DNA of 64,000 bases from Patescibacteria group bacterium (GCA_041660005.1 JBAZXG010000001.1:158565-222564); one strand, 5' to 3'. Positions 37,667-57,831 are shown, counted from the stretch's first letter. A program made the numbers and translations. Notes: generated by a model from the sequence alone, not told the origin.

Positions 37667-38107
37667 CTACAATTCGTACCCTTGCAACGCAATAAGTCCT
37701 TTGTTGCCAAGCATGATGCTCTCCATACGCTGCATTGACCGTCGGTCCTTATCAATTTTGTGATCATAACCAAACACATGCAAGAGTGCGTGCAAGAAAA
37801 GCGCTTTAACTTCGCTCTCCACAGAAATGCCATGGCGACGGGCCTGACAAACGGCGCGCGGATGACAAATAATAATTTCACCATAATCAAAGCTCAAAAC
37901 ATCAGTAACGCTGGACTCGTTCCGGTACGTTTTGTTTAAACGTCGCATGCTCGTTTCTCCAACAAAAGCCAGTGAAAGTTCGTCAGGCATTGAACGCCGT
38001 CCCCGCATAGGTATTTTTTTCTTGGCTCGCTGTAAAACGAGAGACAATTGTTTTGTAGATACTGTTTGACGTATCGTTTTTGTAACGACCAAGGTCATGC
38101 CAATCAA
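37667..38107 (-). CDS. ybeY: rRNA maturation endoribonuclease YbeY
   Basis: HALLHVFGYDH metal-binding motif. Confidence 0.9.
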   Translation of the reverse strand: MIGMTLVVTKTIRQTVSTKQLSLVLQRAKKKIPMRGRRSMPDELSLAFVGETSMRRLNKTYRNESSVTDVLSFDYGEIIICHPRAVCQARRHGISVESEVKALFLHALLHVFGYDHKIDKDRRSMQRMESIMLGNKGLIALQGYEL

Positions 38108-39126
38108 GAAGAAAGGTGTAGGAACTGAATAAACAATTCATAGGTGGCTCGAAAATCAAGCGTCGTCTTTGCGCCAGAAGTTAAACTCACCACGTAAACA
38201 TCCTTGGACGCACCAGGAGAAGTGAAATAGAATGTTTGCCGATCGGGAGAAAAAATACCCGTATGCTCGCCAACAGTTTCAAGCACGGGCAATGTTGCCA
38301 CAGCACCAGCGATGCTCGCGCGATACCATTCGCCAATGGCAAGCTTACTAGGATTATTCTGCACGAGAACTGCAATGGACTCGTCAGCAGCGGACACGAA
38401 CTGTATCCCGTCGCGACCAATTGGTCGAGTCGTCCAACGCACTGGGTAACGAACACTATAGCGACCGTTTGGATCACTATAGGCAGTGAATAAACTACCA
38501 CCCTGCAACTTACCCGTTCCTATCGGATTATAGCCGTTTTTGAGTTCGTCTAAATCACTATAACCATCGGCATCACTATCGGGCTTAGCAGGATTTGTAC
38601 CAAACAATGTTTCCTCACTATTGGTTAGTCCATCAGTATCAGTATCAGCACTGTTAGGAAGAAGTGCGGTAACAGGCGGTGGTGTTACTGGGGTCGGAGG
38701 TTCGTTTGTTTGTGTTTCTGACCCTGGCGCCGGAGCTGTATCGGGCGAGGGCGTTGTCGGCAATGTTCCTGACGCCATATTCCCGCCCGTGGTGTTCGTC
38801 GCCGCGGCCGGGGAAGTTGCTGTTTGCTCAGACGCAGCTTGGGGGGCTGAGGCCGGCGCCTGAACACTCGTAACGAGCCAGTACGTGGTAGCAACAAGAC
38901 TGCCGATAACAATAATAGCAACGCTCCATAGTTTTAGCGGTGTCCAAAAACGATGATGTTCTTCAACTACCAAAAACTTATCCGGCATGGTTCGTATGAC
39001 CGTACCGACTATTAAGCGAGGTGCAGTATCTACGACTGCAACCGTTTCTTTTTGCTTTTGTTTAAACAAGGACAGCATACAATGAATTACTTGACCGCCT
39101 GGCAAGCGATACCTCCGGAACAGCAA
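38104..39126 (-). CDS. Membrane-anchored protein with Pro/Thr-rich linker and bacterial TSP3-type Ca-binding repeats (DTDTDGLTNSEE..DSDADGYSDLDE)
   Basis: TM LWSVAIIVIGSLVATTYWLV; DxDxDG repeats; C-terminal NGYNPIGTGKL shared with neighbour; start uncertain (39126/39078/38988). Confidence 0.6.
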   Translation of the reverse strand: MLFRRYRLPGGQVIHCMLSLFKQKQKETVAVVDTAPRLIVGTVIRTMPDKFLVVEEHHRFWTPLKLWSVAIIVIGSLVATTYWLVTSVQAPASAPQAASEQTATSPAAATNTTGGNMASGTLPTTPSPDTAPAPGSETQTNEPPTPVTPPPVTALLPNSADTDTDGLTNSEETLFGTNPAKPDSDADGYSDLDELKNGYNPIGTGKLQGGSLFTAYSDPNGRYSVRYPVRWTTRPIGRDGIQFVSAADESIAVLVQNNPSKLAIGEWYRASIAGAVATLPVLETVGEHTGIFSPDRQTFYFTSPGASKDVYVVSLTSGAKTTLDFRATYELFIQFLHLSS

Positions 39127-39813
39127 CTACTTCGGTACATTGAATAGTTTGCCAAGACCTTTAGGGTTGTAGCCATTGCGAACTTCTGCACCGTCTGAAA
39201 AACCATCGCCGTCAGTGTCAGGTTTCAACGGGTCAGTACCAAATGAACGAACTTCTTCGCCGTCAAAAAGCCCGTCGCCATCGGTGTCAGGATTCTGCGG
39301 GTCAGTACCAGCCGTAATTTCTTGCGCATTCGAAAGACCATCCTGATCACTATCGTCTTCTGGTGAAGCTGGCCCTTGACCTTGCAACTGCAAATCTGGT
39401 CGCGGTGTTACTTCGGTCGTTGGCGCGGCGTTAGTGTCTATTGGCGTAGTGGCTACCGGCTGTTTGTTGCCTGCGCTTCCTTTAAAGTACCACCAAGCAC
39501 CACCAGCACCAGCAATAACAATGAGGGCAACGAATGCTGCGGCAATAATTTTTGTAACCGTACGAGAACCGTCGTCAAGATACTCTTCAGGAATACCGCC
39601 AGAAGTATTCGGTGTTTGCGAGAGCGCCGGACGTGACGGTTGACCAGAAGGTTCTGACAACGGTACCGATTTCTTGGGAACGAAAGGCGAAGACGGAGCG
39701 CTGTCAACTGAAGCAAGCATATCTTCAGGTGCCTTCATAGGTAACGAAGGACTAGATGATTTTGCCACTGAACCAGGGTCTTTCTGCTCTCCTTTTTCTT
39801 GTTCTTCAAACAT
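39127..39813 (-). CDS. Membrane-anchored TSP3-repeat protein, paralog of 38104-39126
   Basis: DDSDQDGLSN..DTDGDGLFDGEE..DTDGDGFSDGAE repeats, TM AAFVALIVIAGAGGAWWYF, C-terminal NGYNPKGLGKL. Confidence 0.6.
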   Translation of the reverse strand: MFEEQEKGEQKDPGSVAKSSSPSLPMKAPEDMLASVDSAPSSPFVPKKSVPLSEPSGQPSRPALSQTPNTSGGIPEEYLDDGSRTVTKIIAAAFVALIVIAGAGGAWWYFKGSAGNKQPVATTPIDTNAAPTTEVTPRPDLQLQGQGPASPEDDSDQDGLSNAQEITAGTDPQNPDTDGDGLFDGEEVRSFGTDPLKPDTDGDGFSDGAEVRNGYNPKGLGKLFNVPK

Positions 39814-39855: not shown

Positions 39856-42800
39856 CTAAGGTGATGACGGTGGCGTTAAAATATTAACAATGGCACCACG
39901 TAACCTATTTGTTGACGCATCAACCGCAGAGGCATAGATAATATCTCTTGAGAGATAATTAAGCGTCAAACCATGGTAGTCACCCTGGACGGTAATCACT
40001 GGTATGGGTGCTGTCCAACCTGCACTTACCCAAGTCGGATCGTTTGTGCTTAACACCGATCTACGATACTTAATCGTTGTCGTTGATTGAGTAGTAGTAC
40101 GCTCTGCATAAGCAATGTAAAGATAGCCGCTTCGAGAATCTAATGCTAGCGCTACACCTTGGAAACCCCCTCCTGCAACACCAGTAATGTTGGACCCAAC
40201 CACCGTTCCGAATGTACTACTTTTTGTCCGACGCTTAAGTGCGATAAAGTCATCGTTGCTAACTACCCCCTGATCTTGTCGATAGGCAACGATACTTTCT
40301 CCTGTTGTTGGATTTGTTACGGCACTGAACCCGTCACCCGCATAGCCGGTCATAATAACGTTTTCTGCCGCAGTCAAAACCGGCTGTTCTGACCCCCAAG
40401 AGGAGGTTGCGTTCGGACCAACCCACACGCGCGCATTTAATGTTTTCGTAATGGAATTGTAATGATACAAAAGCATTTTCCCCGTGGCATCATCGGACGC
40501 AAGCGGTACCAACTGCGGTGCTTCGTTGTCGGTTTCTGGATAAGGATTATTCGTAATCCGCGAGCATGCATTTGAACTCAAAGGACACTGGTCACTGAAG
40601 CTGCTGGCGCTCGTCGAAACTTGACTACTCAGCGTGAAGTAATTCTTTCCGTCAACCGCTTTTGTCGCTGAAATCAACTGCGGCGCATCAACTATCCCCA
40701 CTGCGACACCGGTCGGTCCAAGAGTAGTTAAAGTATTGCCGACAGTATTGAGGGTCGAATACTGAATAGTGTTTGCATTATTGCCACCAGCTTGCGCACG
40801 ACTCGCCCCCAGGTGAATGAGGGAACCGGTATTAAACGGTGCAGGTGTCCACTGGTCATACCATGACACAATATGGCGACAGTTAGCCGCAATATCAACT
40901 GATGCTGCCCAAGTAAATCCAGTTCCACCACGAGTTCCCCGCACGTACTGACAGGTATTGTTTTTTCCGGTATAGAAAAGATACCCATTGGTTGCCGAGG
41001 AGAAGACGGCGCGCGGACTGGTGCCGTCATTGTAAGTAGCGGTCACATTCGTAGCGGCTATGTCCTCATTGGGCCACCCAGCAATCCAAATATCAACCGA
41101 ATTACTGACCGTTTGCCCAACACCGTTTACTGCGGTCACGGTATAAGCACCGCTACCGGGTATCTGCTTTGTTCCAGATGCGGGCCAGCGCGTACCAGTT
41201 ATTCCAGAAATAGAGCCAGGATTTATTTCGTACGAACTCGCACCAGTTCCACCGCCCCAGGTAAATGCTAATAAAGAATTGGGGGCACAAGGAGCAGAAA
41301 CATCTAAACAAGCAGCATTATATTGACTTACAGTACAAGAATAAGTTGTACCATTGATAACGGTACTTCCACCACGGTTACTCACGTTACAGTTTCCTCC
41401 TTGAGGACCAATGACAAACAATGTGACAGGCTGCGGTTTTGTGACAAATTTTGCGGTCACCGTTTGTTCACCCGTCATAGAAATAGTACAGGTAGGACTT
41501 GCGCCAGCACTCGTACATGCACCACCCCACCCCTGGAAAGTACCGCTATTCACTACAGAAGTAGCGCGAAGCGTAATGGAAGAATTTTTCAAATAATTTT
41601 CCGTAAAACCGTTTGAAACGCCATCATTTGCCGTCGGTGTTGGCCAACCCGCCGGCGCACTCTCAACAACGACATTACCATTTACAACAGGAGGATTGGG
41701 AAATGTATTATCTATCTTCTGCAATGTCAGTTGCTGCACCGCTTCAAACGTTGCCGTGACAGATAGAGAACCACCGGCAGCCGATGCTGAGAAATTACAC
41801 CGATTTCCTGTTGCCGAAGGACAATTCGTCCAGCCGGTAAATTGCGCACTGCCGTTCGGCGTAGCAAGAAGCACCACTGCATCCCCTGGATTAGGGTTGA
41901 AAGAACAGGGAGTCATGGGATCGGACGAGCTCGGGTCATTCGTACAATTGCCGGTTCCTCGCGCTGTTGCATAACCGAGGCGACCCAAACCTGATCCGCT
42001 CACAATCAAATTCACGGTTGGTCGTTTCGAAACCGTTACGCTATCGGTAGCAGTCAGTGAACCATAGCCCTGAACCGTAATGGTATAGGTTTGACTTGTA
42101 TCAGCACCCAAACTCACGACTACCGATCCTTGCGCGGATGACACATTGTAACTCGCAGGCGGAACATTGGTGAAACTACTGATGCGCACAAAGTCGGCGA
42201 CAGGTGTTACGTTCCAATTCAGCGTCTCACTGCCAGCTGGATCAATAAATACACTACTGGCTGACGGATCTGAAGCTGGCGTGAGGGTTACGCTCGGGGC
42301 TTGATGTACGGTCACCGTTACGCTCTTTTGATCAGGTGCTCCAACGCGACCCGTTGCCGTAATCTTGTAGGTCTGGCTAGTACTCGCCGTTGCCTGCTTC
42401 GTACCACTCGCTTCTGGAGTTACAACACCAACCCCCTGGTCAATCGCTACCCCGCCAGAAGTTGCGTCCGTAGTCTCCCACCGAAAAGTTATGTTGTCTC
42501 CGGCAACAACATCTGCTGAGGCGCCGAACTGATTGTTTGGCCCAGCCACTTCAAACTTTGTCACCTTCGCTGGTTTTACAATCGCTAACGTGGTTGTCGC
42601 TGAAGCAGATTCTCCTGGACCGCTGATGTTCAAGGTATAGGTAATATTTGTCGGTGCGTTATTCGACGGACAGTCATGTACGGGGGCGGCTGCGGCATTT
42701 CCAGAAATTGTACGATCAAGGGAACCGTCGTCAGCATGCACAGTAATAGTACGTGTCGTTGGAGCTGCTCCGGTTTCTGTCCATGTTAAGTCACTGCAAT

Positions 42801-45800
42801 CACGATTTTGAATGAGACTCGGTGTTGCGATAAAATTATTTATGCCGCTCGGAACATTCACGGTAAACGACACACTCTTTGTTGTTGTTCCACCAGGGCC
42901 AGTCGCGGTAAGCGTTAATGTTGTCATCCCCATCTTGGCAACAACAGTACTGCTGCCGTTTGGTGGAAGTTCTGTCATATTTACACGATCTGCAACGTTA
43001 CCGTCTGAAGTCAATAAAATATCAGTCGCATTGGTGGTGGTCCAGGAAACTGTTATTAGTGCTCCGTCGATGTAACTTGTGCCATTGAGTAAGCTCAGTT
43101 CTGCCGTTGGTTGTGCGGCAGTCAAATTAACTTGCAAAGTAACCGTTCTCGTCACTGTCACACCTTCACAACGAGTACCATTTTCGACACCAGTACAACT
43201 ATTCACCCAACCCCCAAACGTGCTGCCGACTTTCGGAAAAATCTCCACATCAACACTTGTATTTGCATCAAAAGCAAGTGAACAGGTGTCGTTAATTGAC
43301 GCACACGTTTGACGACCACTACTGGCTGTCACCACAACAGTCGCGTCCCCTGCTTCGCTACTGTTCAGCACTTGCAAGGTTGATACGTTTCGGAAACTTT
43401 GGGTGACAATCTTCGGTGTGCTCATAACCACCGAGCAGGCGCTCTGCCCGCTACAGGCGCCGCCCCAACCACCCAATGAGAAATCAGCGTTATCTAATAC
43501 TGCTTCAAGTAAAACATTTGTGTCGACGTCATAAGCAAACTCACAGGTCGCTGATACACTAGCAGGCTTCACGCAAGTATCAACGACCGATCCGCCGGAC
43601 ACAAACCGAACCTTCACCCGCCCCCCACCTGAACCTGTCAGCGTCAACTGAAGGGGCTTCAACTGAGGGTTTGGAGGAATAATGGTTCCGCCACCATCCA
43701 TAATGGGACCGGGTGGAGGAGCGGGCAAACGATCACGCACCGCAGTATCCGTCACCAGACAAAGGCGATCGCCACCAGTGACTTGGTTGAGTAGAGCCGG
43801 AAATGGAGTAAACACACTTTCCACAAAAGAGCAGAGAGCATAATCCTGACCCTGCCCTTGGCACTTCTCACCGGTCGGACACTGGCTGTCAACAATGCAT
43901 GCCTGCGCAGTTGTCGTCGAACAACGGCCATAAGCGCTGTACGTGTAGACGTGTGTTTCCGTAAGTTGAGCAGGATCAAACGACCACGGTACATCAGGTG
44001 GCGGTTCTACTTTTGTTATTTTTTCTTTAGCTGCATCCAGCGTCGCAAAGTGAGAGGCATATGTTTTAGAAACCTCATCCCAACATGTATTCGAATCATG
44101 TTTCAGCATAGCTGTTCCTAATGTGCTTTCAGTTCCACCGGCTTCACATGCAGCAAAAACACCAATAGGATCCTGCGGCAGTTGTCGACCAAGTTCGTTA
44201 CCTAATGTTGCCACCCATGACGGCCAACGGCTCGTACTGGTGCCAGTTACATAGGTACCCGCGGCTAATAATGGATAATTTGTTGTTCGATCTGCTGGCC
44301 GCTGACACGAGGACGTTACGGTCTTTGTCACGTTGCTGACATCCGTCGCGTCAACATCACCATCAGTATCGGTATCTGCACCGCGGCAGTAAGAAGGAAT
44401 ACTGCCGGGGTTTGCCCGATACCACTCTGTGAGAGAAATATCATAGCCATTAATAACACCATTACAGTTTGCGTCCCCCGGTGCACCAGGAGTAACCGCG
44501 GGACAGGAGGACCCATACTGATAGGCGCTCAAAGTCGTTGACATGTTGACGACGTCGCTCAACCGTTTCACGTCTCGAGTAACCTTGGACTTTGTGTTTG
44601 CGCAAACATATCCACTACCACAGTCGCTGTTAAAAATGCACTGCTTAACGACACCGCAGGTATTGCCACTACCGCAATCACTGTCTTGAGTACAGGCCTT
44701 GCTATTATTGTTAGAACAAAAACGAGTAACCTCTGCGCGACCAGTAGCCTGTTCCCTGCAGTTACCCACGGTCAAGTCATCAATGTTAAAGATGAGATTT
44801 TGTACCAGCTGGTTATAGACATTCTGTGTCGTGGCCTGCGCTCCCTGGTTGTAGGAGAAAATGTAAACGTTTGTGAAGAACACAGGATCGCTCACACCAT
44901 CTCCATTAACGTCAACACCAGAAGTGTTCGCTGCACCAATATAAATGGTGCGACCATCCCGAATAGCTGGGTACCCATCGATTACTAAAGATTCTGGCGC
45001 ACCTTTACTAAACGGCTGCTCAGCGTACCACTGGCTCGGCGTTAAATGCCGGTCATTTCTTACCACTCGAACACCAATAGCATCCGGATCAGGGTGCGTC
45101 GGATCAATAGTCGGGGCCTTCAAAATCCACTCCGCCAAAATGCCGAGCTGATTTGCACCGGCCGGTGCATCAATTTTTGTATTCGAGAAGTTAGGTAGTA
45201 GCTCCGGAACACATGAATTACCAGCGCCGCACTGTTTATCGTTAGCACATGATTTATTCTTATCGTTCGAGCAAACACTTCGGGAGGTGTCCTGACAGTA
45301 AGTCGTATAGAAATTCGTCGGGCTGTCCCCCGCCGGAGGCGGACCATCTTGCAACGGACCATTGTCCCACGGTTGGCGACACAGCATGAAAGTAACCGGC
45401 ACTCTGTTACTGCCCATGGTGTCACTATCGCTCCCTAGACTCGCCGATACATTGACGAGCGCAAAACGCGTACGATTGTCTGATGGTTTATTGGCAAATG
45501 TTGTTTCAAGTTCAGGAGTGGTTGTGTTGGCTAAGGAGAGTAATGGCAACGGATCTTCCTTTGACCAAACATAGTTTGCGCTCAATGCCTGGCCAATAGC
45601 ATCCACTGCTGTTGCCTGATAAACGTGTTGGTTACCGGTTCCTGGTGCAGAGTTCTGGTCTTCAGGCACTTCCCCCGTTGTTGTCTGCCGACAGCCGAGC
45701 TTGACGCCACCAGTGTCAGAACTGCAATTACAATGGTCGCCGTAGCAGGCGAACAGATCGTACGGCTGGATAAGCGTTCGCGGTTGGCTTATCGACATTT

Positions 45801-48800
45801 CCGTAGAAAGTACTGGTGCAATGTTGACCTGAATATTATCAACCTTGCAAATGTGATTGCCAACACCGGGCGGTGTAGACGCTGACGGGTCTGGGAACTC
45901 CTGATTCTTGTCACCGTCAAGCGCAATTCCTGCGGTACTTCTGGCTCCCCCTGTTGGATCTGTGGCGTTTTCGCCGTGCACAACCACACGATACTTAAGC
46001 TTTTTATCGAGTAAGGAGGATACGCTAATAATTGCTTTCGTTACCGGCGAAGACCCGTCTGGGAATACCGTACTCGCCAAAACTTTTGTTCCCAAAACCT
46101 TGCACCAACCACTGCCTGCGGCTGCTCCAGCCTCGTTCAAGAACAATCGACGCACAAACCCGAAGAACTGACTCATGGGTGTCGCTTCAGCAACTTTAAG
46201 ACTTTCTTCCAAGTTGCAGTCTGGCAAGCCATCTGCGTTAAGTTCTCCGACATTATCTAACCATTCGAGACTGGTGTTTTGCTCAACACTGGTCCGATCC
46301 ATCGGTTGACTAAACATAACCGTAAAGGCAGCGTTCCGACAAATGGTTCCGTCAGCTGGAGACTCGGCACCTGTAATTGAAGTGACCCACGGTCGTATGC
46401 CACAGCATCCTCCCTTATTCACCGCAAAACTGCAGAAGAGATCATTGCCTGTACCGTCACCATTGTCACAGGAAACGTGAGAGTCGTTGCTGCATTTCAA
46501 CTGCGCGTTACAAGTGCCAACCGGGTTACCACTACCACAAACATTTAAACTGAGACCAGACGCATCAACATTGCATTGGCTGCTTGTTGAACAGGCGCGC
46601 TTCAACTGTTTTGCGCAGACGTGAGGAATAAGGGAAACACTGTCTACTTCAACACCAGTTGGAAGTTCGAGCACCAAAAAGAATTTATTACCAGTAACCG
46701 CTGACCCGAACGTAACCGTTCCGCTATGCGCTGACCACTTGTTCGTCGTTGTAACAACTCGAGGGTCATCGCCAATAAAATCCACAAACGCTAATTTATC
46801 CAAAATGTTATCTGACTTTGCTAAATAAACGCGTACTCTCTCAGCGCTACCCGGTCGGCGTACCGCAAAGGAAAAATCATATGCCTGGTTCGCAACCGCA
46901 TAGGGCATATCAATGAACGTTACGAGTCCCTCATCGAATGGACACGTCGTCGTATGACAGTCAGGCTGGCGATAATACTGACGGCCATCAGCGGCGTTGC
47001 CGGTTGTCAAAACGGTGCTGGCATACATCTTGGTGCTGTCCGTATCATCTCCCCAACCAGTCAACGGATCAGTACTACCAGCTTTAGTAATTTCAAAACT
47101 ACTATTACCAATAACGTTCTGTGTTGCACTAATACAAGCTTGCGGCGCGATAAATCCGCACTGCAGGGTCAGCGTACTCTTGCCAATAACCGCACAATCA
47201 CTGGTTGTTGTACATTTTTTGGGCTGATTATCACAGGTATCTGCTGCCCCATTACCATCGCTGTCAATCGTGCAGAGGCCAACACTCGCGGTAACGTCTG
47301 TGGCACATTGATAGGTGGGTGCTACAGAACAACTTGGTGCCTTGCCAACGGCTGTTGCAACCTGCCTGGGATCAACATAGCTTCCCACTACCACATGGCC
47401 GGAACTATCAATCTGCTTCAACACGTTATTGTTGGTTATGGTAGCAACATCCGCGTCAGTACTGTTCCACCCATAATCATAGCTAATGGCGGCCAAGCGC
47501 TCACCCGTTGCATTGCAAGAATCTGGCGCTCCAAAGGGCTGCGCTACGATATCTTCAGTAGCACCGATGGTGCGCAAGGTCGCTTTATCAGGAATGTTGA
47601 TGACGCGATCAACCGCACAAATGGTTGATTTCGTTTTAAATACCCACGAATAAGCATCAATAGTATTTCCGTCAACGTCTTTCTCTTTATAATTAGTTTC
47701 GAGCGATTTGCCTTCTTCACTTCTGATATCTTTCGTTAAAATAACACGATAGTACGTTTCTTTTTGAAGGTATCCGTTTGCTGCGGTAAAGCTAACTTGA
47801 TACCGTTTTGGTGTCTCTTCCTTTGCTGGAATAACAATATAGATTGGCTCCGTAATACCAATTCTTTCTGTGGTCGTTTTGTCACTGATTATGCAATCCG
47901 CATTTGCACATTTGTAAAGCTGTACACTGTCAGTCCATACAGGAGCTGCTGTATAGGTAAACGTGCTCGCAGTTAACGGACGAGAAAATACTGCCCCGAT
48001 TGCGGCATTGAGACAAGCGGCATCGCACGACGGGAAAGGTTCAATTACTTTGGGTGCTTCAAAAATAACGTTCACCCGACACTCGCCCACCCGCGCCGCA
48101 GGATCCGCGGGCGAGGCTGCTTTAACTTTCGTCGTACCCTCGCTAACGGCAGTTGCCGTGTTATGGCAACCGGTGAGCCCTGGATCAACTGATGCCACCA
48201 AAGCGCTCGACGACGACCAGGCAACGCTGCCAGACGGGCAAGACAAAATGTTACAATTGGCCGCCTGCAGACCAGCGGACAAACTCTCTTGTTCATCTTT
48301 TGCGGTCAGCTTGTGAGAAGACGGCTGACAAGAAAGCGAAGCAACGGCACAAGTGTCAGACTTTGCTTGAAAACGCCAGATGTAGTCTTTGTCCGGAGAA
48401 ACTCCCTTGTCGCTCTTTACCGCTTTCGTCACTCGCGCCTCATACCAATGATTCAACGTAAAACCACCAACATCAGCAGTAAACCCACCATTTTCGATAT
48501 TCAAATTGTCCGTATAGGTAAAGAACTGTAACGCGGCTGGAGAAACACCGGGTTTCGGCTGCTTACAATCTGGGTCACTATCACAATCAGCCACAACAAG
48601 AGCCGTTTTTGGTGTTGCCACGGTATCAATTGGGGTTGTAAAGCGAACAGAAACTTGTGCGTTGGTGCAGGCATCGACTGAACCCTTCCACGGGCTCGGA
48701 CTCTGTGTTGAACTGCTGGTCCAAGACAAATTAACCGCGTCAACATCAAAACCAGCTTTGGGTAACTCAATAACTACATAGAACTCTTTTGCAGTATAGG

Positions 48801-51800
48801 CTTGGGGAATCGTTACCGCGCCGACAAACTGCTGCCAACTTTGACTAAGATTTATATTCTGACCCGTAGCAAAAGTAAAGAAGGCGAGTTTGTTCGAGAT
48901 ATCATTAGCATCAGCGACATAGACACGCACAGGAGCAATACCGGCGGCAGCAGTCTTCTTGCTGAAAAGCGATACAGTAAAAGATTGACCCGACGCAGAC
49001 TGCGGGAAACTCACTAGCTGAACTAACCCACTCGCAAAAGAGCAAGCGACGCTGCTACAATCCGGCTGTTCGTAAAAATGAGGACCCTCAGCAGCAGATC
49101 CAGTTTTCAGAAAATCTTGAGCAGCATAAGTAATACCAGCAGACGTTCCTCCCCATCCTGATATCTTGCCATCAGCAGTAACAGCATTTTCAAAACTTCC
49201 GTTTATAATGGCTTCGTTATTACATTGCTGCTCCTCAACGACGCGCGGCACGGGGTTACCGGTACTAAACTGCCAACGGTAGGACGCCAATATTAATGGC
49301 AACGGCACAGTGCACGGCTTACTAACCGTCGAACAGCTGCCATCACCGCAACATTGGAAACCGGCAGCGCAAATATTCGGCGCCTGCTGGCAGGCAGTTA
49401 CAGGGTCAGAGGTAAGATAAAATCCGTCATTCCCTTTATCTACATTCATGGAAAAATTGGCCCTATTTTTCGTGATATCAATTTCAACAGAATCCGGTGC
49501 TTCGATAGCAGCAGCGGGATCACTCCTGAATGATTTTACCTTCATCGTCTCAAACTCAACCCTACCAACTACTTTCTCCACATCGGTAACGAGCGGATGG
49601 CCCCCGTACAGCACAACACGAACCTCGCCGTTGATACGTTGAACCGCAAGCCCGGGAACATTTCGGTACGCGGCAATGTCGGGATCGTTTATCGGTACGC
49701 CGTTCTGATACACGGGGAACCACTCACCATCAGCAACAATATTCGTGCCTGACCCAAGGTACACCTTTTTTTGCAAATCTCCAGCGCCAGCGTTTTGAAT
49801 AGAGGTAAAGACAACACGCGCACGAGTCGTATCGGTGCATGCTGCACCTGCGGGAACTAAGCAGGAACCAACGGTAAATTGGAGTGGGTTACTGACCGTA
49901 CCACCATCTCTCACCACACGAACGGGTCCTGAAATTGCAGCACCTGGGACAACTGCTTTAATGGTCTGATTTGCCCAATTTTTTATCTCGGCTGCAATAC
50001 CGGCAAGCGTTAAATTGGTCTGTGCTGAGTTGCCATCATAATATCGAACCGAGCCAGATTGTTGTGTCGCACCAAAGCTGTCTCCAAAATGCTGCACCAA
50101 CAGCGATGGAGGTCCATTGTCTGGTGCCAGACAGTAGAGACCGGGCGTTGGCGTATTAGTATTTACGGTAAAGACCGTATCGCGGTTACTTTCCTTGTCG
50201 TCACGACGCACCACATACACATACTGATCAGCAACAGTAACGCCCGCCGGAACTTTCAACACAATCTGTTTATTCTTCCAGTAAGAACTTGGTCCGCACT
50301 CTGCTGGAAAATCTGCCCATGATACCTCAACCGCAGTACCACCTGCTTTTGGTATAAAATACGCCTGACCGACATCCGTACCAAAGTTAGAACCAGTAAT
50401 CGTAACAACTTGCCCAACTGGTCCGGAGGACGGAGTGACAGAATCAATGACCGGACCTGGCTGGCATGATTTTACCGTAAAGTTATATGGGTTTGACTGA
50501 ACATCTGCTGCGGTTTTAATCGTAGCCCCAACAACGCCCGTATGAACGTTGGCAACCGACGAAACTACTTCGGTCGGTGTCCACACATCAACGACGCCGG
50601 GCAGTGAACCAAAAATCGCACTCCCTTTGGCGGAGCCAAAATTTTTGCCAAGGAACGAAACATTGGGAATGGCGGGATCGTTCACGCAGGCGGCAGACGG
50701 CGTTATGGCGCAAAGTCCTGGTCGAATAGTGGCATTGACATCAAAGTCTGGTAACACGGGTCCGGGTGCTTCATTTGTGCGATCGATGAGGTTAAGCGCC
50801 GTACTCACTTCAACTGATCCATCAACTGCGGCAGCGGGAACTTCCACAATGATTTGATTATCTTGCCAAGTTGCTGCCGTGGAACATACCGACGGCAGCG
50901 CAGCTACGGTATCGTCACTGTTCGCCGGGTCGTCTTTGGCATTACCATCGCCGTCTTTGTCCGTACCAAGGAAAGTGACAACGCCGGGTGTTGTTCCAAA
51001 ACCACTGCCAACAATGGCCACGTAGTTACCTGGCGCGCCGTCGTTGGGTAGTACGGCGGTGATAACAGGTGACTCTGCACAGATACAGGAATCAGGATCA
51101 CAGGCGCTCATCACCGCGCATCCAAACGGATCCGGCTGGCAGGACGGCGCAGTGGTGTCACTATCGCATGATGAACCAGGACAGGCACCGCAAGAACCAC
51201 CACAATCTAAGCCCGTTTCGTCGCCGCTCACTTTGCCATCAAAACAAAAGCCAGGACGAATCTTTACGGTTTTTTCAACCAACGGCGGTTCGTTCTCGTG
51301 GCTTGCAAAGTCAAAGGCCTTTACCTGAAGCGTTCGTGTAGATCCAACCGTAAAACCATTCGTACTCCAAGCAACACCTCCAGTAAATGGAGTATACGGC
51401 GCCGCAGTGGGAGCGGCGTCTCCTATATATGGGGTGGCGGCTTCTTTATCATAAAATTCTAAACGGGAAATGCCGTAGTCGTCCCGACCAACTGCACTCA
51501 CGTTCACACTCGAGTCAACGGGCACTTGACTGCCAACTGGCGCTTTAAAAGCAACCGTTGGCGACTTCGTGTCAACATAGTCCCCTGTCTCAAAGGTTGC
51601 CTTACATGGGTTACTCGGATAGGTACAGTTGAGCGCTCGACCACTAACGCTGCGAATGACTCCGGAAGTCAACTCAACAGTGTAGTTCGTGTTTGATGCT
51701 AAGCAAGACAAAGACTCATTAGGGACGTCACACTTTGCAAGCGGCGTGAAACTGATGCGACGATTACCGGATGCTGCTTGGCTGGTGTCTAATGTCCCGG

Positions 51801-52509
51801 CAATAATTGCTGAAGAATCTGCTGTTGGGTAGATGCGTACTGAATCGCTCGTGGTGCCGTAGGTGAGTGTTGCAACGTCTACCCCTTCATTAAATTGTAC
51901 CTGCACGACACTATTTCGCGGTGCGTTCGTCGTGCTATTCGGCGGCGAGTAACGGCTAACGACAAAAGCATCTGGTGGTTGTGGTCTACAGCCAGGGAAT
52001 AATGTACAACCACCATAATTATAAATACCGTCTCCGTTGGTATCGCTACACGTTCGCTCACCCGCACATGTACCAATAGAACAAGAAATGGGCGGATCCC
52101 CAGCACTACACGCTTGCCCAGGAGGAGGATTAATAAGGGTTCGCAATAGATAAGAAGCAATTGCAAAAGCAGAGAGAATGATAACGAGCCCAATACCTGC
52201 ATTAATGAGAACGCTGCGTGCTTGACGAATCCGCTCTTCGTTTCCTGCCGCAGTCATCCAAAGATACCCACCATACATAATGAGCCCGACGGCGATGAGG
52301 CCGAGGAACCCAAGGAAGAAACGAATGATACGAGCGATCAAAATTTTTAAGTCTCCCCCACCTCCACCGAGACCGATATTGTTACCAATAGTGTTAATGC
52401 CGGTATCCAAATTCTGCGCAAACACCGGCAGTGCAGCGAGCACAACAAAAGCAACAACCGCCAAGGCCAGCCAGCCAGCGTGTACTTTCCTTTGTCGTAC
52501 TTTCAACAT
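39856..52509 (-). CDS. Giant 4217-aa multidomain cell-surface protein with N-terminal pilin-like 2-helix anchor
   Basis: 12,654-nt ORF without stop; signal peptide ..PVFAQ; IPT/TIG-like, Big/SbsA-Ig-like, CBM4_9-like (NGSFENAV..GW), InlB B-repeat-like, DxDxDG, BNR-like (STNDPTW) segments. Confidence 0.85.
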   Translation of the reverse strand: MLKVRQRKVHAGWLALAVVAFVVLAALPVFAQNLDTGINTIGNNIGLGGGGGDLKILIARIIRFFLGFLGLIAVGLIMYGGYLWMTAAGNEERIRQARSVLINAGIGLVIILSAFAIASYLLRTLINPPPGQACSAGDPPISCSIGTCAGERTCSDTNGDGIYNYGGCTLFPGCRPQPPDAFVVSRYSPPNSTTNAPRNSVVQVQFNEGVDVATLTYGTTSDSVRIYPTADSSAIIAGTLDTSQAASGNRRISFTPLAKCDVPNESLSCLASNTNYTVELTSGVIRSVSGRALNCTYPSNPCKATFETGDYVDTKSPTVAFKAPVGSQVPVDSSVNVSAVGRDDYGISRLEFYDKEAATPYIGDAAPTAAPYTPFTGGVAWSTNGFTVGSTRTLQVKAFDFASHENEPPLVEKTVKIRPGFCFDGKVSGDETGLDCGGSCGACPGSSCDSDTTAPSCQPDPFGCAVMSACDPDSCICAESPVITAVLPNDGAPGNYVAIVGSGFGTTPGVVTFLGTDKDGDGNAKDDPANSDDTVAALPSVCSTAATWQDNQIIVEVPAAAVDGSVEVSTALNLIDRTNEAPGPVLPDFDVNATIRPGLCAITPSAACVNDPAIPNVSFLGKNFGSAKGSAIFGSLPGVVDVWTPTEVVSSVANVHTGVVGATIKTAADVQSNPYNFTVKSCQPGPVIDSVTPSSGPVGQVVTITGSNFGTDVGQAYFIPKAGGTAVEVSWADFPAECGPSSYWKNKQIVLKVPAGVTVADQYVYVVRRDDKESNRDTVFTVNTNTPTPGLYCLAPDNGPPSLLVQHFGDSFGATQQSGSVRYYDGNSAQTNLTLAGIAAEIKNWANQTIKAVVPGAAISGPVRVVRDGGTVSNPLQFTVGSCLVPAGAACTDTTRARVVFTSIQNAGAGDLQKKVYLGSGTNIVADGEWFPVYQNGVPINDPDIAAYRNVPGLAVQRINGEVRVVLYGGHPLVTDVEKVVGRVEFETMKVKSFRSDPAAAIEAPDSVEIDITKNRANFSMNVDKGNDGFYLTSDPVTACQQAPNICAAGFQCCGDGSCSTVSKPCTVPLPLILASYRWQFSTGNPVPRVVEEQQCNNEAIINGSFENAVTADGKISGWGGTSAGITYAAQDFLKTGSAAEGPHFYEQPDCSSVACSFASGLVQLVSFPQSASGQSFTVSLFSKKTAAAGIAPVRVYVADANDISNKLAFFTFATGQNINLSQSWQQFVGAVTIPQAYTAKEFYVVIELPKAGFDVDAVNLSWTSSSTQSPSPWKGSVDACTNAQVSVRFTTPIDTVATPKTALVVADCDSDPDCKQPKPGVSPAALQFFTYTDNLNIENGGFTADVGGFTLNHWYEARVTKAVKSDKGVSPDKDYIWRFQAKSDTCAVASLSCQPSSHKLTAKDEQESLSAGLQAANCNILSCPSGSVAWSSSSALVASVDPGLTGCHNTATAVSEGTTKVKAASPADPAARVGECRVNVIFEAPKVIEPFPSCDAACLNAAIGAVFSRPLTASTFTYTAAPVWTDSVQLYKCANADCIISDKTTTERIGITEPIYIVIPAKEETPKRYQVSFTAANGYLQKETYYRVILTKDIRSEEGKSLETNYKEKDVDGNTIDAYSWVFKTKSTICAVDRVINIPDKATLRTIGATEDIVAQPFGAPDSCNATGERLAAISYDYGWNSTDADVATITNNNVLKQIDSSGHVVVGSYVDPRQVATAVGKAPSCSVAPTYQCATDVTASVGLCTIDSDGNGAADTCDNQPKKCTTTSDCAVIGKSTLTLQCGFIAPQACISATQNVIGNSSFEITKAGSTDPLTGWGDDTDSTKMYASTVLTTGNAADGRQYYRQPDCHTTTCPFDEGLVTFIDMPYAVANQAYDFSFAVRRPGSAERVRVYLAKSDNILDKLAFVDFIGDDPRVVTTTNKWSAHSGTVTFGSAVTGNKFFLVLELPTGVEVDSVSLIPHVCAKQLKRACSTSSQCNVDASGLSLNVCGSGNPVGTCNAQLKCSNDSHVSCDNGDGTGNDLFCSFAVNKGGCCGIRPWVTSITGAESPADGTICRNAAFTVMFSQPMDRTSVEQNTSLEWLDNVGELNADGLPDCNLEESLKVAEATPMSQFFGFVRRLFLNEAGAAAGSGWCKVLGTKVLASTVFPDGSSPVTKAIISVSSLLDKKLKYRVVVHGENATDPTGGARSTAGIALDGDKNQEFPDPSASTPPGVGNHICKVDNIQVNIAPVLSTEMSISQPRTLIQPYDLFACYGDHCNCSSDTGGVKLGCRQTTTGEVPEDQNSAPGTGNQHVYQATAVDAIGQALSANYVWSKEDPLPLLSLANTTTPELETTFANKPSDNRTRFALVNVSASLGSDSDTMGSNRVPVTFMLCRQPWDNGPLQDGPPPAGDSPTNFYTTYCQDTSRSVCSNDKNKSCANDKQCGAGNSCVPELLPNFSNTKIDAPAGANQLGILAEWILKAPTIDPTHPDPDAIGVRVVRNDRHLTPSQWYAEQPFSKGAPESLVIDGYPAIRDGRTIYIGAANTSGVDVNGDGVSDPVFFTNVYIFSYNQGAQATTQNVYNQLVQNLIFNIDDLTVGNCREQATGRAEVTRFCSNNNSKACTQDSDCGSGNTCGVVKQCIFNSDCGSGYVCANTKSKVTRDVKRLSDVVNMSTTLSAYQYGSSCPAVTPGAPGDANCNGVINGYDISLTEWYRANPGSIPSYCRGADTDTDGDVDATDVSNVTKTVTSSCQRPADRTTNYPLLAAGTYVTGTSTSRWPSWVATLGNELGRQLPQDPIGVFAACEAGGTESTLGTAMLKHDSNTCWDEVSKTYASHFATLDAAKEKITKVEPPPDVPWSFDPAQLTETHVYTYSAYGRCSTTTAQACIVDSQCPTGEKCQGQGQDYALCSFVESVFTPFPALLNQVTGGDRLCLVTDTAVRDRLPAPPPGPIMDGGGTIIPPNPQLKPLQLTLTGSGGGRVKVRFVSGGSVVDTCVKPASVSATCEFAYDVDTNVLLEAVLDNADFSLGGWGGACSGQSACSVVMSTPKIVTQSFRNVSTLQVLNSSEAGDATVVVTASSGRQTCASINDTCSLAFDANTSVDVEIFPKVGSTFGGWVNSCTGVENGTRCEGVTVTRTVTLQVNLTAAQPTAELSLLNGTSYIDGALITVSWTTTNATDILLTSDGNVADRVNMTELPPNGSSTVVAKMGMTTLTLTATGPGGTTTKSVSFTVNVPSGINNFIATPSLIQNRDCSDLTWTETGAAPTTRTITVHADDGSLDRTISGNAAAAPVHDCPSNNAPTNITYTLNISGPGESASATTTLAIVKPAKVTKFEVAGPNNQFGASADVVAGDNITFRWETTDATSGGVAIDQGVGVVTPEASGTKQATASTSQTYKITATGRVGAPDQKSVTVTVHQAPSVTLTPASDPSASSVFIDPAGSETLNWNVTPVADFVRISSFTNVPPASYNVSSAQGSVVVSLGADTSQTYTITVQGYGSLTATDSVTVSKRPTVNLIVSGSGLGRLGYATARGTGNCTNDPSSSDPMTPCSFNPNPGDAVVLLATPNGSAQFTGWTNCPSATGNRCNFSASAAGGSLSVTATFEAVQQLTLQKIDNTFPNPPVVNGNVVVESAPAGWPTPTANDGVSNGFTENYLKNSSITLRATSVVNSGTFQGWGGACTSAGASPTCTISMTGEQTVTAKFVTKPQPVTLFVIGPQGGNCNVSNRGGSTVINGTTYSCTVSQYNAACLDVSAPCAPNSLLAFTWGGGTGASSYEINPGSISGITGTRWPASGTKQIPGSGAYTVTAVNGVGQTVSNSVDIWIAGWPNEDIAATNVTATYNDGTSPRAVFSSATNGYLFYTGKNNTCQYVRGTRGGTGFTWAASVDIAANCRHIVSWYDQWTPAPFNTGSLIHLGASRAQAGGNNANTIQYSTLNTVGNTLTTLGPTGVAVGIVDAPQLISATKAVDGKNYFTLSSQVSTSASSFSDQCPLSSNACSRITNNPYPETDNEAPQLVPLASDDATGKMLLYHYNSITKTLNARVWVGPNATSSWGSEQPVLTAAENVIMTGYAGDGFSAVTNPTTGESIVAYRQDQGVVSNDDFIALKRRTKSSTFGTVVGSNITGVAGGGFQGVALALDSRSGYLYIAYAERTTTQSTTTIKYRRSVLSTNDPTWVSAGWTAPIPVITVQGDYHGLTLNYLSRDIIYASAVDASTNRLRGAIVNILTPPSSP

Positions 52510-52514
52510 AAGTA

Positions 52515-54704
52515 TTACGGCGCGTTAGCTGTTACGTCACCCGGCACATTGCTCTGCCCATTGACCGGACCATTACTGGGGTAGAAACAATTTTGGTAGG
52601 AATCATGAATCACTGAACCGTAACGCGGCTCATACTTTTTATGCGACTGCGACCCAGATAGGCTCGGGTCTTCAAGCCCACTGTGATTTAACGAAGCGTC
52701 TTCTCTGCCGCAAAAGTCGAGTGTACCACCGTTACAATCTTTATTCAGATTGCAAGCCATTAAACCTCCTACTTCGGCACTGTGGGTGAGACTGCATACC
52801 TGCTCGCATTTATTCGCAGGGTCGTTATTCAATGCCAAACACTCTGCTGTTGAAGTACAAGGAACAACTTTAGTCGGATCACTCAGACTCGGTAGGGTGC
52901 AAATATGCACGGGCTGTTGGTTTGTCGTAAATGCGTAAGGGTAGGGCACGTATGGATCACCAACTTTGTCCTCTTGATAAAACGCAATTGGTGCGTGTGG
53001 TTCGGGTCGAGCAGGATTCGTTTTGTCGAGATAGGTACGAATGATACTGAGCCGTCTGTTAAAGCGAGCAACAATCGGCGTCTTGGGATTAACCCCTTCC
53101 TTGTTAACTTCCGGAGTCACGTTAATAATTTCTGGGCCACTCGAGACAATGGTGTCTGTTGTTTTGAACGACCAGGAAAAACTGTCTTTCGGCGGACCGT
53201 CCGCAGTGCCGTCACCACTTGGCATACGTAATTGCTGATGACCTTCACTATCGAGCACGGGATTACCGTTACTATCCTTTTCAATGTTCTTGCTGCCATC
53301 GAGTGAGTTACTTGCCATATCCACCACACCGTCAAATATTCCATTGCCCGGCGACGGAGTACAGGCGCGCGACGGGTTGTTCGACGGTTCCGGTCCGAGA
53401 TTACATCCAGGGTCACTCCAAAGCATGGCTGCTTTCACATCCGCACTCACCGTCACACTTGCTGGCAGGCAATAAATCGTCTGGTTGCAGGAATTGGTGC
53501 CACAGGGATCAGACGAAACAAATTCCACCGTACGATACCCATTACCAATGCTGAATGTTCCGTTGACCGGCGTATTACCATTGTCGGCGTTCGCTACAAT
53601 TAAATTATTGAACCCATCGGCAGTACTACCGCTCGCGCTAATCGGGTTGACCGCTTCATTAAAGGTAACCTGTACAACGGTATTACGTGCCAGTTCGTCA
53701 TACTCCCAAGGAAGTACGTCAATGATTTTTGGCGGGGTCGTGTCGATGATGGTGGAAACTTCGAAGGACCATGCGTACTTACTATCCTGTACGAGGAAAC
53801 CAGAATCTCCGTTTTTCTTTGTAAGCGTAGTATGCACCGTCGCTCGATGCTTAGTATTGACATCAGGCAGCCCAAGAAGCGCTGCGCCGTGCAAAATAAA
53901 GACAAATACCTTCTCGTCGTTGGTGTAAACGTCAAAGCTTGAAAACTGCTTATACCCCGTTCCGTCACCTGGATCCCACGCTAGATCAAAAACATTTTCA
54001 TTCATGGTGCCACACCACAAAACGGAACAAGTCACCGTGCCAAAGTCTTCACCTTTACTCACCGCATTACTGAGAAACGACTTCGGGAGACTAGCAATAT
54101 CCGCCGCGGTCTTCGGGTCTTTATGAATAACCAATATGGGCTCCCTGAAAGTGATTGCCATACTGGTATTTCTCGGAACATTTTTTTGATCACGCCCGGG
54201 GTAGTGATCTTCAATGATACCGTTCCCTAGTGCAAAACAGTTACTGCAGGGTGGCGGTGAACCCGACCCATTATTGGTGTTGCCGCCCGTACCAACCAAC
54301 CAATTGAGCAAAAACGAAACAATGCTAAAGGAAATTAAAATGATAACGAGACCAATAGCTCCATTACGGAGCACTTTCTGGGCAAGTTCAATGCGTTCAC
54401 TGTTGCCGGCAGATGTCATCCAGAGGTAACCGCCGTAGAGGACGACACCGATAGCAAGGAGACCAAGGAAACCAAGCAGCGCGCGAATAATGCGCGCTAT
54501 TAAAATTTTTAAATCCCCCGAACCGGCACTGAGGCCGGAATTGTTTGAAAAATTAGTAAGGCCGGTATCAAGCCCTTGCGCCAAGGCAACGACCGGAAGA
54601 AAAGCAAAAATGACGGCAACCCCGAGAGCGAGTGAATGGCGCAGCGTCAACCAGGGCAGAATAGTTTTGTTCCGTCGTAGAAAAAAGGCCTCGGATATTG
54701 CCAT
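52515..54704 (-). CDS. 726-aa surface protein (start chosen at MAISEAFF; the ORF opens at 54779 as 754 aa) sharing the pilin-like N-terminal module of the giant protein
   Basis: GDLKILIARIIRALLGFLGLLAIGVVLYGGYLWMTSAGNSERI..IGLVIILISFSIVSFLL nearly identical to giant protein residues 50-122; Ig-like FNEAV segments; stop 5 nt before giant gene ATG. Confidence 0.7.
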   Translation of the reverse strand: MAISEAFFLRRNKTILPWLTLRHSLALGVAVIFAFLPVVALAQGLDTGLTNFSNNSGLSAGSGDLKILIARIIRALLGFLGLLAIGVVLYGGYLWMTSAGNSERIELAQKVLRNGAIGLVIILISFSIVSFLLNWLVGTGGNTNNGSGSPPPCSNCFALGNGIIEDHYPGRDQKNVPRNTSMAITFREPILVIHKDPKTAADIASLPKSFLSNAVSKGEDFGTVTCSVLWCGTMNENVFDLAWDPGDGTGYKQFSSFDVYTNDEKVFVFILHGAALLGLPDVNTKHRATVHTTLTKKNGDSGFLVQDSKYAWSFEVSTIIDTTPPKIIDVLPWEYDELARNTVVQVTFNEAVNPISASGSTADGFNNLIVANADNGNTPVNGTFSIGNGYRTVEFVSSDPCGTNSCNQTIYCLPASVTVSADVKAAMLWSDPGCNLGPEPSNNPSRACTPSPGNGIFDGVVDMASNSLDGSKNIEKDSNGNPVLDSEGHQQLRMPSGDGTADGPPKDSFSWSFKTTDTIVSSGPEIINVTPEVNKEGVNPKTPIVARFNRRLSIIRTYLDKTNPARPEPHAPIAFYQEDKVGDPYVPYPYAFTTNQQPVHICTLPSLSDPTKVVPCTSTAECLALNNDPANKCEQVCSLTHSAEVGGLMACNLNKDCNGGTLDFCGREDASLNHSGLEDPSLSGSQSHKKYEPRYGSVIHDSYQNCFYPSNGPVNGQSNVPGDVTANAP

Positions 54705-54714
54705 GCGTTTTTGT

Positions 54715-57228: not shown

Positions 57229-57831
57229 TTAACTACCTGCGGCAGGCAATAAGTTATAGCTAAAAACATGCAAACGATTGAACGGCCAGGCGCGTACCCA
57301 GACTCTTCCTATGATATAGCGGTCAGCCACCGGTCCAAAAACGCGAGAGTCAAGACTGGCGCCACGGTTGTCGCCCATGACGAAGTAGTGACCCTTTGGC
57401 ACGTCAACAGTAAATTCACCGGTCGTTTCAAGTCCAACCGGCAAAAACGGTTCAGCTAAAGCCACGGGCGAACCATTATTCGGTGGCGTTATGCTGAGGT
57501 GACCGCGAGAAATAGTAACCGTCTCCCCTGGTAGACCAATGATACGTTTAATAAAAAACTGACTTGGGTCGCGCGGATAACGAAAGACAACGATATCGCC
57601 GCGCGCTGGCTCTGAAAAACGGTACGAAAGCTCATCAATGAGCAAATACTCATTGTCATCAAAAGTCGGCTCCATGGACGCCCCCTTTACGTAAAAGGGC
57701 TGGACGATGTAGTAGCGAACCGGAAGAATAATAGCAAGGGATATCAAAACAACCTTCAGGAGCTCTACAATGAACTCGCCGAGTTCCCCGAATACTCTTA
57801 TTGTTGGCCGCTCATCTTTCAAAACAGGCAT
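57229..57831 (-). CDS. lepB: Signal peptidase I
   Basis: GASMEPTF (catalytic Ser), GDNRGASLDSR box. Confidence 0.9.
   Translation of the reverse strand: MPVLKDERPTIRVFGELGEFIVELLKVVLISLAIILPVRYYIVQPFYVKGASMEPTFDDNEYLLIDELSYRFSEPARGDIVVFRYPRDPSQFFIKRIIGLPGETVTISRGHLSITPPNNGSPVALAEPFLPVGLETTGEFTVDVPKGHYFVMGDNRGASLDSRVFGPVADRYIIGRVWVRAWPFNRLHVFSYNLLPAAGS

Follow-up and report, generated by a model that had tools for sequence, protein, structure and literature searches.

A VirB2-like pilin module heads a conserved pair of large Ig-rich predicted surface proteins in Patescibacteria

A 64,000-nucleotide (nt) stretch of a metagenome-assembled genome (MAG) from a Patescibacteria group bacterium (GCA_041660005.1, JBAZXG010000001.1:158565-222564; here called the window) contains two adjoining open reading frames (ORFs) on the minus strand that encode a mid-size protein of 729 amino acids (aa) and a giant protein of 4217 aa (Table 1). 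The giant gene begins 5 nt past the stop codon of the mid-size gene. The contig that carries them is 244,965 bp long. Both proteins open with the same N-terminal head, consisting of a predicted signal peptide and two hydrophobic helices that resemble the VirB2-like pilins of type IV secretion systems (T4SS), and both continue into a long tail that we refer to as the ectodomain.

The N termini of the two proteins align without gaps at 65 of 111 identical positions (59%; E value of 5e-36 by BLASTP), and identity reaches 68% in the 76-column pilin core. This alignment bears out the common signal peptide, the two-helix module, and the motifs that an earlier, original prediction had quoted for both proteins, but not its wording that the copies are nearly identical at the protein level. 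The original prediction had also called them similar at the nucleotide level, which overstates the case: the shared head DNA is 62% identical over 300 ungapped nt, with ~1.6 synonymous substitutions per site (dS), a saturated value, and 0.35 nonsynonymous substitutions per site (dN). The likeness of the heads is thus old and resides at the protein level, where it is kept by selection on the protein and is not derived from recent duplication. Recent duplication or gene conversion was considered as a source of the likeness and was rejected on the saturated dS together with the lack of long identical nucleotide tracts.

A six-frame scan of the window with a profile hidden Markov model (HMM) of both copies found exactly two heads, the next match having an E value of 0.33. 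Kyte-Doolittle analysis placed three hydrophobic segments in each protein, all of them N-terminal (the signal peptide, helix 1, and helix 2), and detected no C-terminal anchor or further hydrophobic segment in either one. Signal-peptide cleavage probably takes place after the A-x-A motif and before Gln. Structure prediction of the module was among the checks named in the original prediction: AlphaFold2 (AF2) folded the giant's head as a confident helical hairpin (predicted local distance difference test [pLDDT] score of ~90 over residues 60 to 120), but in structure searches with the head, a pilin hairpin was indistinguishable from any other helical hairpin.

The start of the mid-size gene is ambiguous. 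Read from the first ATG, the ORF spans positions 52515 to 54779 and encodes 754 aa; the public annotation and the original prediction begin at M26 (position 54704). The annotated ATG at 54704 is without a Shine-Dalgarno sequence. The in-frame ATG at 54779 has an AGGAG ~6 nt upstream, yet starting there would create a 65-nt overlap with the 3' end of yqeY. It would also give the protein a 68-residue leader, which recalls the long leaders of VirB2 and TraA propilins. A 752-aa variant (P0388) belongs to the same 90% cluster as the mid-size protein.

Table 1. Features of the pilin-headed gene pair and its neighbors (positions counted from the first letter of the window)
Feature	Position	Strand	Description
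Mid-size pilin-headed gene	52515..54704	-	729 aa; from ORF list, translation, and Pfam (Big_5 and T4SS_pilin); 100% identical to MFA5954131.1 (P0121; locus tag WC817_01160), labeled "hypothetical protein"
Mid-size protein, predicted Sec signal peptide	54579..54704	-	aa 1-42, ending ...VVALA, then Q43; hydrophobic segment 24-42; A-x-A/Q aligned with the AQ of free pilins
Mid-size protein, VirB2-like pilin core	54288..54524	-	aa 61-139: helix 1, loop WMTSAGNSERI, helix 2; AF2 helices 65-97 and 102-139
Mid-size protein, ectodomain	52518..54287	-	aa 140-729: Gly/Asn/Pro linker, tandem Ig-like beta-sandwich domains (Big_5), Cys-rich C-terminal part
Giant pilin-headed gene	39856..52509	-	4217 aa; identical to MFA5954130.1 (P0296), "Ig-like domain-containing protein"
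Giant protein, predicted Sec signal peptide	52417..52509	-	aa 1-31, ending ...LPVFA, then Q32; hydrophobic segment 13-31; AF2 helix 10-32
Giant protein, VirB2-like pilin core	52132..52362	-	aa 50-126: helix 1, loop WMTAAGNEERI, helix 2; AF2 helices 52-86 and 91-126
Giant protein, ectodomain	39859..52131	-	~4090 aa; hydrophilic; Thr/Ala/Ser/Val/Gly-rich; 130 Cys
Downstream neighbor 1	39127..39813	-	228 aa; single-pass membrane protein (transmembrane segment 89-107), Pro/Thr-rich linker, TSP3 (Ca-binding type) repeats; Pfam TSP3_bac, E value of 3e-24
Downstream neighbor 2	38104..39126	-	~320-340 aa; single-pass membrane protein, Pro/Thr linker, TSP3 repeat, globular C-terminal part
Signal peptidase I (LepB)	57229..57831	-	Pfam Peptidase_S26, E value of 3e-44; upstream of the pair

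Judged by its sequence, the head truly belongs to PF18895 (T4SS_pilin), the family of VirB2-like pilins of Patescibacteria, and the VirB2/TrbC-type likeness first proposed for it holds at the family level. Against PF18895, the giant scores 37.0 bits when its N-terminal 400 aa are searched (match at residues 57 to 121) and 31.6 bits as a whole protein, above the gathering cutoff of 26.6, while the mid-size protein falls just below that cutoff. PF04956 (TrbC/VirB2), a model named in the original prediction, matches the giant at 19.2 bits (E value of 1.4e-3), under its gathering cutoff of 27.9, with model positions 5 to 98 of 98 aligned to giant residues 6 to 121; the Pfam scan gave no match of the mid-size protein to PF04956, and no N_methyl or T4P model matched even at E values up to 1. 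A type IV (PilA-type) pilin identity was ruled out by this lack of a T4P model match and by the type I AxA signal peptide before Gln. The NCBIfam model NF045849 (Mbov_0395 pilin-like) gave 33.8 and 27.3 bits, under its cutoff of 40, with nearly the whole of its 80 positions covered.

When the first 135 aa of the giant were searched against 5.8 billion proteins, 543 matches were returned, and the best 120 of these are all free-standing PF18895 proteins of 117 to 206 aa from Patescibacteria, with E values down to 2e-28. Some of these 120 are named "pilin" or "VirB2 component," and several match PF04956 too. We aligned both window heads with 38 free pilins; all 15 invariant columns of this 40-sequence alignment are kept in both window heads, and the match spans the signal peptide through helix 2. 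The free pilins end ~10 residues past helix 2, at the very point from which the mid-size and giant proteins run on. Compared by hhalign with VirB2 of Agrobacterium tumefaciens, the 40-sequence alignment is in register (probability of 64.8%, E value of 6.2e-5, and 32% identity over 56 columns), and the head loop carries conserved K/R residues analogous to VirB2 Arg91. A sequence search of the PDB with the head profile matched VirB2 (8cue) and nothing else, at a nonsignificant E value of 6.4.

The PF18895 family is very large: among cluster representatives at 50% identity, 62,143 are matched by the head profile, and for 20,775 of these the E value is ≤1e-10. Many two-headed proteins of 220 to 290 aa are among these matches, and tandem heads occur in single database polypeptides, with 8 heads in 820 aa (P0241), 17 in 1775 aa (P0285), 11 in 1147 aa (P0338), and 10 in 966 aa (P0292). 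Such multihead polypeptides may be true poly-pilin proteins or gene calls that read through arrays.

The tails after helix 2 measure 593 aa in the mid-size protein and 4092 aa in the giant, so the ectodomain lengths of 750 to 4200 aa given in the original prediction were too high. In the AF2 model of the mid-size protein (pLDDT of 81; predicted template modeling score [pTM] of 0.73), the hairpin leads through a disordered Gly/Asn/Pro linker into successive beta-sandwich domains, and the ectodomain is all-beta with a pLDDT mostly >90. Foldseek matched this protein to LdtMt2 Ig (immunoglobulin) domains, cadherin ectodomains, the S-layer proteins SbsC and Sap, a Nitrosopumilus S-layer protein, and titin; template modeling scores (TM-scores) were low (0.1 to 0.36) because only single domains match, and no enzyme fold was found in the ectodomain. 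As modeled, its architecture is that of a stalk, an adhesin, or an S-layer-type protein. Pfam matches in the giant comprise Big_5 (residues 181 to 294), a marginal Dockerin_1 (2677 to 2730), and a weak, InlB-B-repeat-like Flg_new_2, and self-BLASTP detected no internal repeats.

Between the two ectodomains, we detected weak Big_5-type Ig similarity (26% over 109 aa; E value of 4e-4). Homology of the ectodomains was rejected, the shared part being this weak Big_5 Ig domain alone. The 130 Cys residues of the giant and the Ig-, S-layer-, and cadherin-like folds of the mid-size protein argue that the ectodomains are extracellular. The marginal dockerin of the giant is also of a Ca-binding kind, as are the TSP3 repeats of both downstream neighbors, and a Ca-dependent interaction is possible.

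The pair is widespread and its genomic setting is conserved. The whole 729-aa protein as a query returned 603 matches from Uhrbacteria, Falkowbacteria, Magasanikbacteria, Buchananbacteria, and other Patescibacteria, nearly all of them 540 to 920 aa long with PF18895 plus Big_5, down to ~33% identity. Four other genomes keep the gene order LytR (on the opposite strand), LepB, HisRS, a small ORF, YqeY, the mid-size protein, the giant, a TSP3 protein, a ~320-aa protein, YbeY, DAGK, FtsA, and FtsZ. The pilin-Ig proteins of these genomes have 571 to 723 aa and their giants 1632 to 3930 aa; in one of the four, the second gene (2887 aa) has no Pfam match on record, and its head was found by our own scan. 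A third pilin-headed gene, encoding 382 aa, lies between the mid-size and giant genes in GCA_964590345.1 (locus L009, 12100 to 13248), and therefore the cassette can expand.

Scanning metagenomes with the head alignment added 80 loci, bringing the total to 92 sources and 302 head copies, a sample that is biased toward heads resembling the giant's. Among the 269 heads with a complete C terminus, the tail after helix 2 has ≤30 residues in 192, >100 in 64, and >2000 in 13. Fused heads thus make up about a quarter of the sampled copies, and the fusion, which the original prediction had called unusual, is so relative to characterized pilins but not within Patescibacteria, where it has >600 database matches. 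The loci are of two types: arrays of 4 to 10 short pilins (mode of 7) and ~35 ordered pairs, in which a mid-size protein with a tail of 413 to 846 aa is followed by a giant with a tail of 1339 to 4092 aa. The same pair is found in at least 34 other genomes, with ectodomain identity as low as 35%.

Upstream of 48 fused loci, we found LepB in 32, HisRS in 33, and YqeY in 22. Pairs with enough downstream flank are followed by TSP3/YbeY/DAGK/FtsA/FtsZ, and in every such locus both TSP3 neighbors come directly after the giant gene. None of the 28 array loci shares the upstream (LepB/HisRS/YqeY) or downstream (TSP3-YbeY-DAGK-FtsA-FtsZ) flanks of the cassette. Passed on vertically, the cassette occupies a fixed place in the core genome beside LytR/LCP, LepB, and FtsA/FtsZ, and from their synteny both TSP3 neighbors may be part of the functional unit. 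Pilin-headed genes with LepB-HisRS-YqeY synteny also occur in two MAGs titled "uncultured Gammaproteobacteria bacterium" (L002 and L005), probably through mis-binning or mislabeling.

The array loci (L010/L011/L013, L024, L064, L090, L091, and others) have conserved neighbors of their own. An SBP_bac_1 solute-binding protein lies directly upstream, and further neighbors are a GT2 glycosyltransferase, DUF2079/PMT_2-type polytopic membrane proteins (GT-C-like), a RodZ-like helix-turn-helix protein, and an LTD/PKD surface protein. This neighborhood might hint at a context of pilin glycosylation or envelope assembly rather than secretion.

We compared heads by mean identity over the 76 aligned core columns, using identity-based distances. 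Free pilins are on average 43% identical to each other, and fused heads are 43 to 44% identical to free pilins. Between genomes, the mean is 59.5% for giant versus giant, 58% for mid-size versus mid-size, and 57% for mid-size versus giant, and it rises to 70.5% for the mid-size and giant heads of the same genome (n = 34). Orthologous comparisons exceed cross comparisons in only 63% of 561 genome pairs, by a mean margin of 1.5 points, and the in-genome paralogue is closer than 84 to 88% of orthologues; the paralogues of short-pilin arrays show no such within-genome excess (43.6% versus 42.6%). In a neighbor-joining tree, 73 of the 78 fused heads fall into one clade that includes only 2 free pilins.

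The fused heads are a single subfamily of single origin, both members of which track each other within lineages. The original prediction had allowed that the module might be a common signal anchor found on many unrelated proteins; instead, the fused heads belong to one clade and one conserved cassette. Because synonymous sites are saturated in the window, we read the within-genome likeness as co-evolution of the two heads, driven either by contact between them or by a partner that they share in each lineage.

The original prediction had suggested a search for VirB4- and VirB6-like partners. No VirB4, VirB6, VirB3, or coupling protein was found among the ORFs of the window that were scanned for T4SS families (all those of ≥400 aa and most of those of ≥100 aa) or within ~10 kb of the four pair loci with Pfam-annotated genes. 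Likewise, no T4SS genes were found among the recurrent and large ORFs flanking 28 short-pilin arrays of this clade, which encode a solute-binding protein, GT2, DUF2079/PMT_2-type, and RodZ-like proteins, an MFS transporter, ComM, SMC, H+-PPase, RpoB/C, PBP1, and PolA. Free pilins do coexist with the pair: an Uhrbacteria genome with COV04 locus tags has both the fused pair and a 7-pilin array, and the MAG from which the window comes also encodes a free pilin (P0003; WC817_01515). The lack of T4SS linkage and the position in a core locus argue against a simple reading of the two proteins as T4SS pilus subunits.

VirB2-like pilins have been sought with PF04956 and PF18895 in 1,948 Patescibacteria assemblies and were located near virB4 in 1,135, with 441 tandem arrays of 2 to 11 divergent pilins (Quinonero-Coronel et al. 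2025, PMC12102498). In Southlakia epibionticum ML1, which represents the only patescibacterial species open to genetic manipulation, a T4SS cluster with a six-pilin array is essential for epibiotic growth (PMC10633639, PMC12857230). With the PF18895 pilins of Patescibacteria, the window heads have in common a signal peptide with AQ at its end, conservation of the mature N-terminal segment, their arrangement as adjacent paralogues, and the core LGFLG...GG(F/Y)xWMTAAGNEE...IGLVIIL. Unlike those pilins, which are stand-alone proteins of 120 to 150 aa, they carry ~590 or ~4090 extra residues. The array pilins are hypervariable (mean identity of 25% in PMC12102498 and 43% in our core alignment), whereas the fused heads show conservation and vary together in each genome. 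The pair lies outside any T4SS cluster, at a locus of housekeeping and division genes.

The heads also share a long leader, two hydrophobic helices, a short loop with one or more basic residues, and termini on the same side with the VirB2, TrbC, and TraA proteins of diderm systems (A. tumefaciens, RP4, and F; PF04956). However, they score below the PF04956 gathering threshold, their loop is ~8 residues longer, their host is monoderm, no VirB machinery lies nearby, and the fused ectodomain makes cyclization or C-terminal trimming impossible. The Mbov_0395 family (NF045849) of Mycoplasma integrative and conjugative elements is similar in that a lineage without a wall or with a single membrane carries a hairpin of the VirB2 type, with an HMM similarity that is below the cutoff for the window heads, but its members are small, stand-alone proteins encoded next to conjugation genes.

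In modular type IV pilins, such as PilB and PilC of Streptococcus sanguinis and the minor pilins CofB and TcpB, a pilin module that becomes part of the filament displays a large, functional C-terminal domain, often as a tip or minor subunit. The window pair is alike in concept only; modular type IV pilins belong to an unrelated superfamily with a class III leader, PilD cleavage, and an N-methylated alpha-1 helix, whereas the leader of the window heads is of type I (AxA). We know of no described modular pilin in the VirB2 superfamily. In the literature that we searched, which was limited in what could be searched and implies no absence elsewhere, we found neither pilin heads fused to large ectodomains nor giant VirB2-like pilins in the Candidate Phyla Radiation. 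The pilin family itself is already known; its fused, paired, syntenic, and co-evolving form was not found described there.

We favor, at about an even chance, the interpretation that a membrane hairpin derived from a pilin presents two Ig-rich surface proteins and probably pairs them. The mid-size and giant proteins would be co-transcribed, and the pilin module would have been co-opted as their N-terminal membrane module. The type I signal peptide would direct each protein to Sec and be cut after A-x-A and before Gln, and LepB, encoded three genes upstream, is a candidate for the enzyme that processes these AxA-Q leaders. The two helices would then enter the membrane as a hairpin whose short basic-acidic loop (WMT-AGNEE-K/R) faces the cytoplasm and whose ends both lie outside. 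Since a signal peptide is followed by an even number of helices, the C-terminal domain would lie outside whether or not the signal peptide is cleaved, and the Pro/Gly linker and the Ig-rich, Cys-rich ectodomain would extend from the cell.

Since the heads retain the complete set of pilin motifs and vary less than free pilins do, we infer that they do what pilins do in helix packing or partner recognition. Helix-helix contacts of the pilin type may arise between the two heads, and possibly between heads and free pilins, and these contacts could form the membrane-embedded base of a two-component surface fiber or adhesin complex, perhaps together with both downstream TSP3 membrane proteins. The role in membrane insertion or polymerization that was first proposed for the module is putative, and the ectodomains may serve in adhesion or in the envelope.

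Several points weigh against a paired membrane hairpin. The association between the heads is putative, and the function suggested for the ectodomains is drawn only from generic Ig-like folds. The mid-size protein, at 23.8 bits (E value of 4.9e-5; match at 93 to 157 in the 754-aa numbering), is just under the PF18895 cutoff, although the precomputed Pfam list of the identical protein P0121 does include PF18895. The within-genome likeness of the heads, measured on 76 columns with identity distances, could also stem from sporadic gene conversion or from constraints that lipids or partners impose in a given lineage. Finally, the complete set of pilin motifs, among them the loop that faces the pilus lumen in VirB2, exceeds what a plain anchor needs and fits incorporation into a pilus equally well.

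That last point leads to an alternative that we regard as possible, if rather unlikely, in which the two proteins are modular minor or tip pilins whose heads are extracted from the membrane into an extracellular T4SS-type pilus; the shaft would consist of short pilins from 7-gene arrays elsewhere in the genome, and the Ig-rich ectodomains would be host adhesins at the tip or sparse along the filament. Every family-invariant residue, the mature N-terminal segment, and the basic loop motif are kept in the heads. T-pilus VirB2 is U-shaped, with both termini pointing outward and the loop with the essential Arg91 facing the lumen (10.1101/2022.09.25.509369), a geometry that tolerates a C-terminal extension, so the tails fit a filament as well as a membrane hairpin. 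The pair together with the 7-pilin array in the COV04 Uhrbacteria genome, the free pilin of the window's MAG, the essential VirB2-like pilin arrays and T4SS documented in Saccharibacteria, and the higher conservation of fused heads (58 to 60%) than of array pilins (43%), which priming or minor subunits would be expected to show, all speak for a pilus. The absence of VirB4, VirB6, VirB3, and coupling protein from the window, the surroundings of the four pair loci, and the ORFs flanking the 28 arrays speaks against it, and a 4000-aa appendage in a tightly packed five-start filament would be sterically possible only at the tip or at very low occupancy. In the part of a published table that covers ten Uhrbacteria assemblies, VirB4 is present in about half and absent from the others, while the pair sits in a core locus, a contrast that is weakened by MAG incompleteness. 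We raise only tentatively, as an unlikely outcome, that the two proteins are the first modular pilins in the superfamily of VirB2, with heads that nucleate or cap a pilus of short pilins or that form a T4SS-independent fiber base.

The ectodomains might instead form a structural envelope layer, either an S-layer-like coat or a wall-spanning scaffold, that the hairpin only tethers and that has no adhesin role. We find this doubtful. The fold matches to SbsC, Sap, and the Nitrosopumilus S-layer point in that direction, as do the UniRef name of the Uhrbacteria orthologue ("SbsA Ig-like domain-containing protein") and the vertical inheritance of the cassette at its fixed core locus beside LytR/LCP, LepB, and FtsA/FtsZ, but Ig-like folds are generic and the TM-scores behind the matches are low. 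A nonrepetitive protein of 4217 aa, with counterparts whose tails vary strongly in length between genomes (1339 to 4092 aa), is unlike the subunits of lattice-forming S-layers, and the conserved pilin motif set would be left unexplained. Least credible, and in our view effectively refuted, is the idea that the module is a generic signal anchor, or the product of recent duplication or gene conversion, with a coincidental likeness to pilins: the giant matches PF18895 above its curated cutoff, the closest homologues of its head are all pilins of that family with its tens of thousands of representatives, dS is saturated in a pair that recurs across genomes with strongly diverged ectodomains, and fused heads are restricted to one cassette and not scattered over unrelated proteins.

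Elsewhere in the window, a gene for the competence channel ComEC (Competence plus DUF4131; 29512 to 31026, minus strand) lies ~9 kb downstream of the cassette. Patescibacteria are documented to possess machinery for natural competence. A sigma-70 gene of the extracytoplasmic function type (2482 to 3063) is followed by a gene for a DUF5667 protein (3060 to 4397), and a DUF5666 protein is encoded upstream on the opposite strand (1604 to 2290). These three genes (1604 to 4397) resemble a sigma/anti-sigma-type module with two uncharacterized DUF families.

Patescibacteria are ultrasmall and largely uncultivated, and the cultivated ones grow attached to host cells. Here, the pilin domain known from their secretion systems heads a vertically inherited pair of very large predicted surface proteins that is unlinked to T4SS genes, which raises the possibility that PF18895 pilins have a function apart from secretion. 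In annotation, the two proteins now go under "hypothetical" or "Ig-like domain-containing," and any survey that tallies PF18895 matches will silently include them as pilins. The pair is a testable candidate for the surface or host-contact apparatus of the class ABY1 (Uhrbacteria, Magasanikbacteria, Falkowbacteria, and others). If the two proteins are indeed modular pilins, they would place a 4000-residue adhesin at the point of host contact, and the pair would be the host-recognition device of ABY1-class Patescibacteria.

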